IMG/VR virus record: IMGVR_UViG_3300032893_000006
Coordinates: 70,338-134,337 of that record
Strand: one strand, 5' to 3'
DNA: 64,000 nt
Source: a virus
Position numbers and translations under genes: made by a program. The notes under the pieces are model-generated. The model was not told the DNA's origin, ran no database searches, and was given only the letters and a program-made list of their open reading frames with translations. Below, one piece after another: positions 51,797 to 54,652 of this stretch (position 1 is its first letter; every line of letters begins with the position of its first letter).

Positions 51797-51902
51797 CCGC
51801 TGACAGTGTTGCTTACATGGGTGGGTAACCACCATTTCACTGCTAATGAAAATCCGGCGCGAGCCGGGTGTACCCGAAAGGGTTGCAGCGCGACTACAGC
51901 GG
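51797..51902 (+). ncRNA. Y-RNA-like element 1
   Basis: CCGCTG/CAGCGG ends; TGAC..TACATG and CGACTACA motifs; arm TTTCA-CTGCTAA-TGAAA. Confidence 0.75.
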
Positions 51903-51917
51903 AGAGATTTTGAGTAT

Positions 51918-51992
51918 GGCTTGACTGTTTCGCATACATGTTGCTCTTGACAAGCGAACACGCCGAAAGGCAATGCGGAACGACTACAAGCC
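51918..51992 (+). ncRNA. Y-RNA-like element 2
   Basis: GGCTTG/CAAGCC ends; shared motifs; arm TTGCT-CTTGACA-AGCGA. Confidence 0.75.
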
Positions 51993-52001
51993 AGTAAGTT
52001 T

Positions 52002-52136
52002 GGGCTGACTGAGTTGCTTACATGTCCTTTGGAGACCGAGGTCGGAGGTTCGAATCCTTCATCGTCCACCAACAATGAGTAGACGGGCGATTAGCTCAGC
52101 GGTAGAGCGCGTAAACAAGCAGATCGACTACAGCCC
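52002..52136 (+). ncRNA. YrlA-type Y RNA (element 3; permuted tRNA domain)
   Basis: GGGCTG/CAGCCC ends; T arm precedes D arm; acceptor ATCGTCC/GGGCGAT closed by a linker. Confidence 0.85.
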
Positions 52137-52150
52137 AAAGATTTTGAGTT

Positions 52151-52270
52151 TGACCTGACAGAAGTGCATACATGTAGCTCATTGGTAGAGCATCTGATTT
52201 GTAATCAGACGGTAGTTGGTTCAAATCCAACCTCGTACCTCGCAAGAGGTTGCACTTCGACTACAGGTCA
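52151..52270 (+). ncRNA. Y-RNA-like element 4 enclosing D, anticodon (TGT) and T arms
   Basis: TGACCTG/CAGGTCA ends; TCTGA-TTTGTAA-TCAGA; no proper acceptor stem. Confidence 0.8.
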
Positions 52271-52277
52271 ATAAGAT

Positions 52278-52410
52278 GGGCCGGGTTCGTCTAAAAGCGA
52301 AACTTCCAGATTCGACTACAGCAGCAATGCTGACTGAAATTGGATACATGGATAAGACAATAGTTCTCGGAACTATGTTTGGAGGTTCGAATCCTTCACC
52401 CGGCTCCTAC
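52278..52410 (+). ncRNA. Y-RNA-like element 5, circularly permuted relative to the others
   Basis: GGGCCGGGT/ACCCGGCTC ends; CGACTACAGCA-gcaa-TGCTGAC internal hairpin; T arm. Confidence 0.78.
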
Positions 52411-52416
52411 AAGTTT

Positions 52417-52547
52417 GGATTGACTGCACGAGGATACATGATCTTGTTCCGGGGAAACCCGGCCCCCTCCACCACCATACCGGCTTCATTTACCAATGGG
52501 GGGCGCGCCGCAAGGCTGCAAATCTAAACCGCGAGCGACTACAATCC
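52417..52547 (+). ncRNA. Y-RNA-like element 6
   Basis: GGATTG/CAATCC ends; shared motifs; T and D positions carry GAAA/GCAA hairpins; acceptor-like stem with CCA. Confidence 0.75.
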
Positions 52548-52569
52548 AAAAGTTTTGTCCGGGGGAAAC

Positions 52570-53121
52570 ATGGCAAGTGGCGACAGGTTTTATCAGCTAC
52601 AGTTGCGCCATCGCGACGCTCTAGTCGGCGACATTGGCTCAATCCTCAAAATTGAAGGAATCGTGATCGGCGGCGAAGGCGCACGTGGAACGCTTATGCT
52701 TCCAGATGCGCCACACGACGTTTTCACGCGTGATTCGCTGTGGCTAACTATCGAAGAGTGGTCAGACTGGCTCCAGAGATCGGACAATCCCGACATACTC
52801 GTGCAGGGATCACTGGAGAAGGTCTTCCACCGTAAGCTCAGGTACGACATCTCCGGCGCAGTCCAGCAGAAGGTGTGGGTTGCTGACGGATGCAAGTGTA
52901 TGTACTGCTTCCGTCCGATGGGGGAAGTGCAGCTTACAATCGATCACTTCGTTCCGCTTGAAAGTGGTGGCAAGAACGATCAATCGAATTACCTGTCGGC
53001 GTGCCGAAAGTGCAACAAGGACAAGGGCGGCATGAGTCCGCGGCAATGGTGTGGTCTGGACAAAGTCAAATGGGATTACGATTCTTACGTCCAGTATCTG
53101 ATCGAACGCAAACTTCCATAA
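52570..53121 (+). CDS. HNH endonuclease with uncharacterised N-terminal domain
   Basis: CKCMYC...LTIDHFVPLESGGKNDQSNYLSACRKCNKDK. Confidence 0.88.
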   Translation: MASGDRFYQLQLRHRDALVGDIGSILKIEGIVIGGEGARGTLMLPDAPHDVFTRDSLWLTIEEWSDWLQRSDNPDILVQGSLEKVFHRKLRYDISGAVQQKVWVADGCKCMYCFRPMGEVQLTIDHFVPLESGGKNDQSNYLSACRKCNKDKGGMSPRQWCGLDKVKWDYDSYVQYLIERKLP

Positions 53122-53146
53122 CTACCCACTAAAGGAGGGTGACTAT

Positions 53147-54652
53147 ATGGGTGAGCAGGGAATCACGAAGCAGCGTATCTTCGCGGAGCTTTCAAAGTCT
53201 TCGCATGGCAAGCTCTCTGAGTATGTTGAGATCGCCAAGCAGGCCATCGCAACTGAGGGCGACTTCTTTCAGCACTTGATCGCGTGGAATCACATTCACG
53301 GACAGGTTCGTGACAGCAAGGTTGCGTTGCCGGTGCTCGGTCTGGCTTTCGAGAGCAATCTCGATCTGCTCGATAACAGCGTCGCGCATCTTGCCAAGCT
53401 CGGTCCTCGTGAGTTGAAGAGGGCTTTCGAGTTCGTTCGCGAGATTCGTCCGCAGGGCAAGATGTCGCGGATGGATCGCGTGATCTGCGCATACCTCCGT
53501 CAGAAGGAGGAGTCGCGCAACTGGGATCACATCGCGATCCAGCACCGTGCCGTACTAAAGGCGCTCTACGCGCTCTCTCGTACCGGCCCGGGCAACCGTC
53601 GTGTAGCTGCCGTGATCTCCGGCCAGTGGAAGGAGAAGATCGGTGACACGGTGGTCGTGACCAAGCTTGCTCTTCCGAAGGGCTCTGTGTTCGAGGCTGT
53701 AGCTAAGCTCAAGGACATGGCTCCTGTTGAGGCTGCTGGCACGATCATGCGCTACAAGATTCCGTTCCTGATCGCCATGGGTGCCCTTGGCTTCAAGGTG
53801 AAGGAGACCGATCTTGTGATGGCGCTGATCGAGCAGATGTCGCCGACTGAGCTTGTGACCAACACGAAGATGCTGGAGAAGCTCGGCATGAAGACCAACC
53901 CGGTGCTCCGTGCTGCATTTGAGAAGGGCATGGAGAAGGCTGCAACGTCCAAGCAGAACACGCTGAAGACGACGGCGGCTGTCGAGGCCGTAGAGGACGA
54001 GGGGCTGAAGGATAAGCTACGCGGCCTGCAGAAGAAGCAGATCGCGGCGGCTGGTGGTCCCGATGGCAACTGGCTTGTGCTGGCCGACAAGAGCGGCAGC
54101 ATGGCGGCGGCAATCGAGATCGCAAGGCACGTGTCCGCGTCTCTGGCTCAGTTCGTCAAGGGCAAGGTGTATCTCGTGTTCTTCGACACCTCGCCGATGA
54201 CGGTCGATGTAACTGGCTTATCGCTCGATCAGATTAAGATGGCGACGCGCCACATCACAGCAGGCGGCGGCACTTCAATCGGCGTGGGCCTGAGCAGGAT
54301 GTTGAAGGAGAAGGTGGAGATCGACGGTATCGCAATCGTCTCTGACGGCGGCGAGAACACCGCACCGCTCTTTGCTGATGTCTACAAGAAGTATTCGGCA
54401 TTCGCAGGCAAGGATGTGCCGGTCTACTTCTATGACACCTACGGCGACACCCACCTCACCCAGTCATTGAATGCGGCTGGCATTGAGATGCAGAAGTTCG
54501 ACGTTCGCAGCGGCAAGGTCGACTACTACAGCATTCCGAACCTCGTGCAGACGATGCGCTCGAACCCCTATAGCCTCGTCGACGAGATCATGGCTACCCC
54601 GCTCGTATCACTGAGCGAGGTGTTGAAGGATGCAGAACTGGTAGGTGCCTGA
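53147..54652 (+). CDS. rsr: Ro60/Rsr-like TROVE plus vWA protein (divergent)
   Basis: Helical N-terminal region with MSPTELVTNTKMLEKLG (TROVE-like); vWA MIDAS DKSGS, GGTSIG, VSDGGEN; adjacent Y-RNA-like array. Confidence 0.75.
   Translation: MGEQGITKQRIFAELSKSSHGKLSEYVEIAKQAIATEGDFFQHLIAWNHIHGQVRDSKVALPVLGLAFESNLDLLDNSVAHLAKLGPRELKRAFEFVREIRPQGKMSRMDRVICAYLRQKEESRNWDHIAIQHRAVLKALYALSRTGPGNRRVAAVISGQWKEKIGDTVVVTKLALPKGSVFEAVAKLKDMAPVEAAGTIMRYKIPFLIAMGALGFKVKETDLVMALIEQMSPTELVTNTKMLEKLGMKTNPVLRAAFEKGMEKAATSKQNTLKTTAAVEAVEDEGLKDKLRGLQKKQIAAAGGPDGNWLVLADKSGSMAAAIEIARHVSASLAQFVKGKVYLVFFDTSPMTVDVTGLSLDQIKMATRHITAGGGTSIGVGLSRMLKEKVEIDGIAIVSDGGENTAPLFADVYKKYSAFAGKDVPVYFYDTYGDTHLTQSLNAAGIEMQKFDVRSGKVDYYSIPNLVQTMRSNPYSLVDEIMATPLVSLSEVLKDAELVGA

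Follow-up and report, generated by a model that had tools for sequence, protein, structure and literature searches.

Particles composed of Ro60 and Y RNAs, a major autoantigen, are conserved from bacteria to humans, and why bacterial Y RNAs mimic transfer RNA (tRNA) is an open question in the field. Ro60 takes up the ends of misfolded RNAs in its cavity. In the systems described so far, the outer face of Ro60 binds the stem of a Y RNA, and the Y RNA acts as a tether between Ro60 and polynucleotide phosphorylase, PNPase (PMC4201824, PMC12135203). Vertebrates have two to four Y RNAs, Salmonella and M. smegmatis have at least two, and up to four small RNAs lie upstream of rsr in Deinococcus (PMC4201824). 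Native-order tRNA-like arms were described for Deinococcus Yrn1 by Chen et al. 2014, and YrlA is modified and processed like a tRNA, being reportedly cut by RNase P and CCA-tailed in M. smegmatis (PMC4201824). A phage Ro60 with Y-like RNAs is already known; Thermus phage phiLo has two such RNAs (PMC12135203). In this study, a 64,000-nucleotide stretch of viral DNA was analysed (positions 70,338 to 134,337 of IMG/VR record IMGVR_UViG_3300032893_000006; hereafter the window). It covers the right-hand 64 kb of the 134,337-bp genome of a soil phage, which CheckV rates complete, and contains six adjacent RNA elements (E1-E6) upstream of a gene for a Ro60-like protein. Both are embedded in a phage tRNA cluster, in which about 40 tRNA genes and a permuted transfer-messenger RNA (tmRNA) lie on the plus strand at 40968-59196. 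We consider it fairly probable that the locus encodes a phage Ro60/Y-RNA ribonucleoprotein system that is divergent and has an enlarged complement of partner RNAs. A first-pass annotation, made from the sequence alone, had given one or two Y RNAs as usual for a known locus; the range in the literature consulted is wider, from one to four, but six indeed exceeds it.

The six elements have a handle in common: an internal loop separates an outer helix of 6 bp from an inner helix of 7 bp, and a single-stranded UACAUG follows. This layout is recovered in minimum-free-energy folds of single elements. In this phage the internal loop reads 5' ACW / 3' GACUA (general form 5' (Y)ACW / 3' GAYUN), the inner helix begins with a pair between the G of ACWG and the C of CGACUA, and the single-stranded part is WUACAUG. 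The first-pass annotation had reported two motifs shared by all six RNAs, and both are real: TGAC-N8-WTACATG occurs four times where 0.03 occurrences are expected, and CGACTACA seven times where 1.06 are expected, with six of the seven at 51891-52543, inside the array. The spacing of the first motif had been given as N7 or N8; it is N8 or N9, with N9 in elements 5 and 6. Likewise, the five outer-stem pairings listed there (CCGCTG/CAGCGG, GGCTTG/CAAGCC, GGGCTG/CAGCCC, GACCTG/CAGGTC and GGATTG/CAATCC) are present and complementary, but the closing stem ascribed to all six elements holds for five. E1-E4 and E6 are closed by their own 5' and 3' ends through the handle, and E5 is a circular permutation in which the 3' motif comes first and the hairpin is capped by GCAA. 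The inner 7-bp helix, which had been missed, also covaries.

Comparison with related phages shows that the handle is a conserved structure. Across 67 viral loci, TACATG clusters of three to eight copies lie on the coding strand, within the 1-2 kb upstream of the Ro60-like gene. A stem detector that used base pairing alone and left the 3' sequence unconstrained returned 129 stems, 97 of which carry a RAYN 3' loop (GACUU, GACUA, GAUUU, GACUC or similar); its pair statistics are circular and were not counted as covariation evidence. When RNAalifold was run de novo on 18 short elements of the E2 class, both helices were found, and each of the 12 pairs had compensatory changes. The covariance model built from this 18-element alignment, R1, matched only E1-E4 in the window, with E6 added when filters were off. 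Searching viral metagenomes with a model of the shared stem had been proposed in the first-pass annotation. With R1, 82 matches were obtained at E<=0.1 across 56 related sources, and 81 of them are co-oriented with a Ro60-like gene and lie 21-3120 nt upstream of it. In the 82-match alignment, paired cells amount to 89.6%, against 53.9% in shuffled controls and 26-44% in controls with a slid partner column, and there are 358 double-change cells versus 101 in shuffles; this alignment was fitted to the model, and the independent check is the de novo RNAalifold result. All three R1 matches in the complete 134-kb genome fall inside the array, and in four complete relatives eight of nine are co-oriented upstream of the Ro60-like gene, the ninth lying inside the locus. 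The real tRNAs of these operons carry no handle in R1 searches. The handle is a covarying conserved RNA structure, and in the whole phage genomes searched it was found only beside the Ro60-like gene. Copies per locus number six here and seven to eight in relatives. One relative, L004, also has hairpin-rich stretches without open reading frames (ORFs) or a handle at 2870-3270, between its handle-bearing elements; these may be further structured RNAs of the array.

The protein encoded downstream of the array is, according to its predicted structure, a Ro60 fold from a lineage that sequence models have overlooked. An AlphaFold2 model based on 33 homologues (pLDDT, the predicted local distance difference test score, 78.5) agrees with the phage Ro60 gene proposed in the first-pass annotation, showing the Ro60 ring and vWA fold, in which the vWA domain comes after a closed, HEAT-like ring of helical repeats. 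Its top Foldseek matches are all Ro60 and cover the full length at E 1e-10 to 5e-7 (phage phiLo 9kop, Deinococcus Rsr 2nvo, human 9nen and Xenopus 1yvp); non-Ro60 structures match the vWA domain only. VIA-align gave Z 17.7 to Deinococcus Rsr 2nvo over 435 residues and Z 17.1 to human Ro60 9nen over 434 residues. The MIDAS motif (the metal ion-dependent adhesion site) is intact, and D314, S316, S318, T376 and D400 are invariant in the 33 homologues. By sequence, only the vWA domain is detectable, with Pfam VWA_CoxE covering residues 309-404; PHROG 850 'RNA-binding protein' matches at 3.5e-11, and an NCBIfam search of the protein gave nothing useful. Relatives are numerous in metagenomes (at least 919 proteins, many on 100-180-kb contigs). 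The lineage also shows that sequence models under-count Ro60 homologues. Among isolate phages no relative was found, the only match being one of 28% identity in an uncultured 595-kb phage. A few relatives lie on contigs of Acidobacteriota and Verrucomicrobiota metagenome-assembled genomes, a weak hint as to the host.

The closest described RNA is YrlA, the partner of bacterial and mycobacteriophage Rsr. In the Rfam YrlA consensus (RF02553), a loop of 5' AUGCU / 3' AAAACUUG lies between an outer helix of 6 bp and an inner helix of 7 bp, and the 5' joiner is CUA. Because the handle has the same succession of 6 bp, asymmetric loop, 7 bp and short single-stranded 5' joiner, and because the 3' loops share ACUU-like letters, the handle is a variant of the YrlA-type Ro60 stem with the same architecture and other conserved letters: (Y)ACW...UACAUG / GAYUN instead of the GNCGAAN0-1G / AAAACUUG of YrlA. 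The view that the closing-stem motif is unlike described Y RNAs was therefore right about the letters, for which no Rfam family matched at E<=10, and wrong about the architecture. As in YrlA/YrlB systems, the RNA genes lie beside the Ro60 gene and are co-oriented with it; in contrast to YrlA loci, which have about two partners, loci of this lineage have six to eight and show two further topologies. They also differ from YrlA/Rsr systems in that Pfam TROVE misses the protein and no RtcB/RtcA neighbour is present here. Within a locus, the letters of the 3' loop are identical in 84% of pairs, compared with 16% between loci, and none of 2000 permutations reached the observed value. Since each phage has its own loop letters, repeated across its elements, and since the interiors of the elements are old, one common reader protein is suggested; uniform handles on old orthologous interiors fit a single co-evolving reader.

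The interiors had been described as completely different from one another. Instead, at least five of the six are tRNA-derived mimics, attached to the handle in three topologies, and across loci they fall into old orthologous classes, of which those of E3 and E4 are the most widespread. Five of the six elements, as predicted from the sequence, have the size (about 60-135 nt) and stem layout expected of a Y RNA, E5 being permuted. In the native-order, Yrn1-like topology, to which E4 and, in a looser version, E1 belong, the handle occupies the acceptor position; the order of D-arm, anticodon-type arm and T-arm is shared with Deinococcus radiodurans Yrn1, whose handle letters differ from those of the phage. 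E4 scores 57.6 bits with the Rfam tRNA model, owing to its D, anticodon and T arms, and ARAGORN reports it as 'tRNA-Thr(tgt)' at 52168-52239. Where a tRNA would have a 7-bp acceptor, a free 5' end and a 3' NCCA, however, E4 has the handle and UACAUG, with four of seven acceptor pairs and both strands running on into the handle. R1 matches E4 at 24 bits. Its orthologues, present in at least 25 loci, mostly keep a 7-nt loop with U33, in which various triplets stand (tgt, ctt, tga, tta, tca, gaa and others). Genuine tRNA genes flanked by processing stems were rejected as an explanation on account of the poor E4 acceptor and the unconserved anticodon. E1 matches R1 at 14.7-15.5 bits and its minimum-free-energy fold gives the handle (z -4.1); in its orthologues in L001 and L004, a T-arm replaces one GNRA hairpin. 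E2 matches R1 at 49.2 bits (E 1e-13), belongs to the class of 18 short elements and recalls YrlB, the short partner in YrlA/YrlB systems.

E3 and E6 represent the YrlA-like topology, with the handle at the anticodon position and a sealed acceptor. The first-pass annotation had read E3 as having its T-arm before its D-arm, and the order of T-arm, acceptor hairpin and D-arm is indeed seen at 52044-52108; the other five elements do not have this YrlA order. The T-arm (52044-52060) is followed by the acceptor 3' strand AUCGUCC with A73 and CCA (52061-52071), a 13-nt loop and the acceptor 5' strand GGGCGAU (52085-52091), which gives a helix of 7 bp that has G3·U70, with A73 and a CCA that is encoded; the arrangement is like that of a permuted tRNA or tmRNA gene. 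The search with Rfam models, also proposed at the outset, returned a partial result: the best YrlA match was E3 at 30 bits (E 3e-4), confined to the tRNA-like core (model positions 23-87) and below the gathering score of 69. R1 matches E3 at 31.3 bits. Orthologues of E3 are widespread, and in other lineages a tetraloop seals the acceptor. In E6, GNRA hairpins stand in for the T- and D-arms, and identity to its orthologues in L001 and L004 is about 81%. Both E3 and E6 place the acceptor 3' strand and ACCA ahead of the 5' strand, like permuted tmRNA and tRNA genes, and their G3·U70/A73 acceptor resembles those of tmRNA and tRNA-Ala; unlike tmRNA, they have no tag reading frame and no pseudoknots, and their ends are joined to a Ro60-type handle. 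The acceptor of the phage's own tmRNA, G3·U70/ACCA, resembles the acceptor helices of both elements.

In the third, tRNA-ended topology, represented by E5, the handle again occupies the anticodon position, and the acceptor is left open, with tRNA ends. The 7-bp acceptor of E5 pairs GCCGGGU (52280-86) with ACCCGGC (52398-404), followed by U73 and CCU; the handle hairpin (52306-52350) takes the place of the anticodon arm; an extra hairpin and a T-arm (52381-52397) come next. Its outer helix is a 5-bp hairpin with the GNRA cap GCAA (52319-52332), and its minimum-free-energy fold has z -4.0. Elements of this class (17 in 11 loci) begin with the acceptor 5' strand, continue with a small hairpin, the handle hairpin, an extra hairpin and the T-arm, and end with the acceptor 3' strand, N73 and CC(U); their acceptor and T-arm covary. 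MAFFT misaligned the middle of these permuted elements, and the handle helices there are supported element by element, not by alignment counts. Four of the 17 have G3·U70. A genome-wide scan for an acceptor plus CCA was too noisy to yield a rate, and only curated cases are cited here. ToxI-like antitoxin repeats, CRISPR and retron RNA were rejected as identities of the array, which has no repeat-spacer units, no reverse transcriptase and no toxin.

Phage phiLo (PDB 9KOP, 9L5Y) offers the nearest phage precedent, with a Ro60 that is the top Foldseek match (E 1.2e-10) and Y-like RNAs upstream of its gene (PMC12135203). The two Ro60 proteins are about 13-14% identical in sequence, and the two phiLo RNAs (Yrl1/Yrl2) were found via a CGAA motif, whereas six RNAs with another motif and explicit tRNA mimicry are present here. 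The literature regards the Yrn1-like and YrlA-like topologies as independent inventions (PMC4201824); here both stand on the same handle within a single locus, together with a third topology. In Rfam 15 and the literature searched, we did not find this protein lineage, the handle consensus, arrays of six to eight, three topologies together on one handle, or tRNA-ended Y-like RNAs with an encoded CCA. The lineage may be regarded as a natural experiment on tRNA mimicry by Y RNAs: one ring protein with six to eight RNAs that bear an identical handle and tRNA shapes joined at three points, all in a tRNA operon. It supplies a new putative recognition motif for how Ro60 reads RNA, co-varying protein/handle pairs, and candidates for what the tRNA-like domain recruits, namely RNase P, CCA-adding enzyme, alanyl-tRNA synthetase (AlaRS) and exonucleases.

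The system is very probably a Ro60-type ribonucleoprotein with the handle as its putative binding site. Several observations weigh against this reading and against the expanded Ro60/Y-RNA system as a whole. The 67 loci were fetched by protein, so part of the handle-gene association arises by construction, and the whole-genome searches that address this bias cover five genomes only. Pfam TROVE matched neither the query nor any of the 33 family members at E<=1, and no PDB chain was found by phmmer or by the 33-sequence family profile. The bacterial Ro60-recognition motif GNCGAAN0-1G is absent, with no CGAA in the 5' strands of the elements. E6 is weak: with filters off, R1 spans exactly 52417-52547 but scores 6.6 bits. 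Gene conversion could be an alternative source of the uniformity of handles within a locus. Finally, the complete phage genome was found to contain no RtcB, no PolyA_pol/CCA-adding enzyme and no Rnl-type RNA_ligase. A self-contained repair pathway is therefore unsupported, and an Rtc-type repair operon of this kind was rejected.

As for function, a role in tRNA quality control or tethering is possible but doubtful. In such a scheme, the phage tRNA cluster and the array would form a single transcription unit ending at the terminator at 55075, and cleavage at the A-R-N-U-U spacers, together with tRNA-processing enzymes, would free the RNAs. The ring of the Ro60-like protein would then dock on the handle as Ro60 does on a Y RNA stem, and the tRNA-like modules would tether it to RNase P, CCA-adding enzyme, AlaRS or 3' exonucleases such as PNPase. 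During infection, the particle might act in the surveillance or turnover of RNAs of the tRNA class, such as misfolded products of the phage's own tRNA genes (approximately 40) and tmRNA. Any effector role of six interchangeable RNA modules on one protein scaffold, as put forward in the first-pass annotation, is likewise putative. Docking and tethering are inferred from established Ro60/Y RNA biology (PMC4201824, PMC12135203); the exonuclease model is borrowed from the Rsr-Yrn1-PNPase complex (RYPER) of Deinococcus, whose Rsr (2nvo) gives the best structural alignment, and a PNPase link here would hold by analogy. It is improbable that some of the elements on this handle (E3, E5, E6 and their relatives with a 7-bp acceptor, N73-CCA and G3·U70) are in addition processed like tRNAs and engaged or even charged by AlaRS, CCA-adding enzyme or EF-Tu. 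If they were, such processing or charging would physically couple a Ro60 ring to aminoacylation or the translation machinery; to our knowledge, a link between Ro60 surveillance and tRNA charging has been described in no organism.

Alternatively, the RNAs may be decoys or sponges for host defence nucleases that target tRNA, or for other tRNA-binding factors, in which case Ro60 would only stabilise or shield them and the phage's own tRNA supply would be protected. We consider this unlikely. It would suit a locus that lies within an array of about 40 tRNAs and a tmRNA, and phage tRNA arrays elsewhere have been proposed to offset tRNA-directed host attack (PMC7824862, section 3.4.9). The intact anticodon-type loops of E1 and E4 and the acceptor/CCA ends of E3, E5 and E6 could serve as bait, and the E4 class keeps the 7-nt Y-U-NNN-R-A loop shape with a free triplet, as expected of a shape mimic under diversifying pressure. 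However, no element is tied to a particular nuclease, and the most widespread classes, E3 and E4, are conserved rather than fast-turning. Nor would a decoy need a ring protein with an RNA-threading cavity, and known Y RNA biology favours tethering and gating.

A second alternative leaves Ro60 as a mere neighbour and takes the handle to be a processing or stability signal of tRNA-operon RNAs, or the site of one of the two proteins encoded next to the Ro60-like gene, p132 and an HNH endonuclease; there is little chance that this is correct. In its favour, the consensus A-R-N-U-U stands directly 5' of the outer helix in most elements (profile positions 7-11; spacers of E1-E6 and 80 related elements) and resembles an RNase E-type cut site, p132 lies directly downstream of the Ro60-like gene in 53 of the 67 loci, and tblastn finds the HNH protein in 31 of 67. 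However, the handle is present in loci without the HNH gene (e.g. L014, L024, L027 and L036) and in loci without p132 (L024, L031, L035 and L056), the real tRNAs of the same operons lack it, and its layout parallels the Ro60-binding stem of YrlA. That E3, E5 and E6 are adaptor RNAs, matured by RNase P and 3' processing, aminoacylated at tRNA-Ala- or tmRNA-like ends and acting at the ribosome with Ro60 as chaperone, is very improbable: 15 of the 17 tRNA-ended elements do have a 7-bp acceptor, N73 and CCA spaced exactly as in a tRNA within the aligned stretch (and L017 has its CCA just past its cut), E3, E6 and relatives do have G3·U70, A73 and CCA, M. smegmatis YrlA is reported to be cut by RNase P and CCA-tailed (PMC4201824) and the phage has a two-piece tmRNA, but E3, E5 and E6 lack both an anticodon arm and an mRNA-like reading frame, E5 in the window ends in CCU instead of CCA, and the E3 acceptor in many lineages is tetraloop-sealed without CCA, which means that the feature is not essential to the E3 class.

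Returning to the Ro60-type system, the features of the locus are collected in the table. The array is followed by the HNH gene, the Ro60-like gene, the p132 gene and an intrinsic terminator. From the tRNA cluster to this terminator, no promoter-like or convincing terminator-like site was found on the plus strand. In 57 of the 67 related loci, tRNA genes likewise lie within a few kb. The A-R-N-U-U spacers, by their likeness to the RNase E cut site RN↓WUU, may set the 5' ends of the RNAs.

Features of the Ro60-like locus and its surroundings, in window coordinates
Feature	Position	Strand	Description
Permuted two-piece tmRNA	45589-45881 (ARAGORN 45557-45972)		Rfam tmRNA_permuted 97.5 bits; tag AEDNALPMAA
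tRNA-Arg	51326-51404	+	Upstream of array
Small DUF1003 gene			Between tRNA-Arg and array (Pfam)
A-R-N-U-U spacers (examples)	51785-51796, 51993-52001, 52409-52416		
Six-element RNA array (E1-E6)	51797-52547	+	All elements co-oriented
E1	51797-51902	+	Handle and cloverleaf-like interior: GNRA hairpin, anticodon-like hairpin (7-nt loop), two GNRA hairpins
E2	51918-51992	+	Minimal: handle and short interior with conserved YYUUGA motif and GNRA hairpin
E3	52002-52136	+	YrlA topology: handle, T-arm, acceptor, D-arm, handle
E4	52152-52269	+	Native-order tRNA look-alike: D-arm, anticodon arm, T-arm, then GNRA hairpin
E5	52280-52408	+	Circularly permuted, tRNA-ended; CGACUA comes first
E6	52417-52547	+	Handle (8-nt inner helix, two mismatches) and closed acceptor-like helix ending CCUCC-A-CCA, G3·U70 type
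HNH endonuclease, 183 aa	52570-53121	+	Between array and Ro60-like gene; Pfam HNH/HNH_5 1e-10
Ro60-like protein, 501 aa	53147-54652	+	Helical-repeat ring and C-terminal vWA domain
p132, 132 aa	54652-55050	+	Start codon overlaps Ro60 stop codon (ATGA)
Intrinsic terminator	55075-55107	+	Strong; 10-bp stem with 8 G-C pairs, then T run; predicted end of transcription unit

The p132 gene appears to be translationally coupled to the Ro60-like gene. Its product is modelled by AlphaFold2 as four helices (pLDDT 84), a small helical or coiled-coil protein for which PDB, Pfam, PHROG, ESM Atlas and Foldseek gave no match, and it may be a new subunit of the particle. About 24 of the HNH matches are clear orthologues (46-70% identity) located beside or inside the array, and their identity roughly tracks Ro60 divergence. 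Such a spread is unusual for a free-standing homing endonuclease; the HNH protein may be a homing endonuclease that has been resident for long, or it may be a genuine partner. Two further HNH genes are present in the tRNA region, at 49404-49952 and 59650-60273.

Other genes are interspersed in the tRNA cluster. Two paralogous PD-(D/E)XK_5 endonuclease genes lie between tRNA genes at 56355-56816 and 56934-57365 (Pfam 5e-31 and 9e-28) and are probably mobile nucleases colonising the tRNA array. On the opposite strand are genes for a BCS1-type AAA+ ATPase (42893-44098) and an ARPP-1 domain protein (46898-48163). The tRNA model gave low-scoring or truncated matches at 46496-46551 (38 bits) and 55822-55891 (37 bits); the former, covering model positions 10-63 only, may be a tRNA fragment or a mimic outside the Ro60 locus. 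Downstream of the Ro60 locus, a 187-aa ORF at 55068-55631 has a PHROG match (enoyl-CoA hydratase-like) that begins at residue 29, and because its listed TTG start overlaps the terminator at 55075-55098, the true start is probably further downstream.

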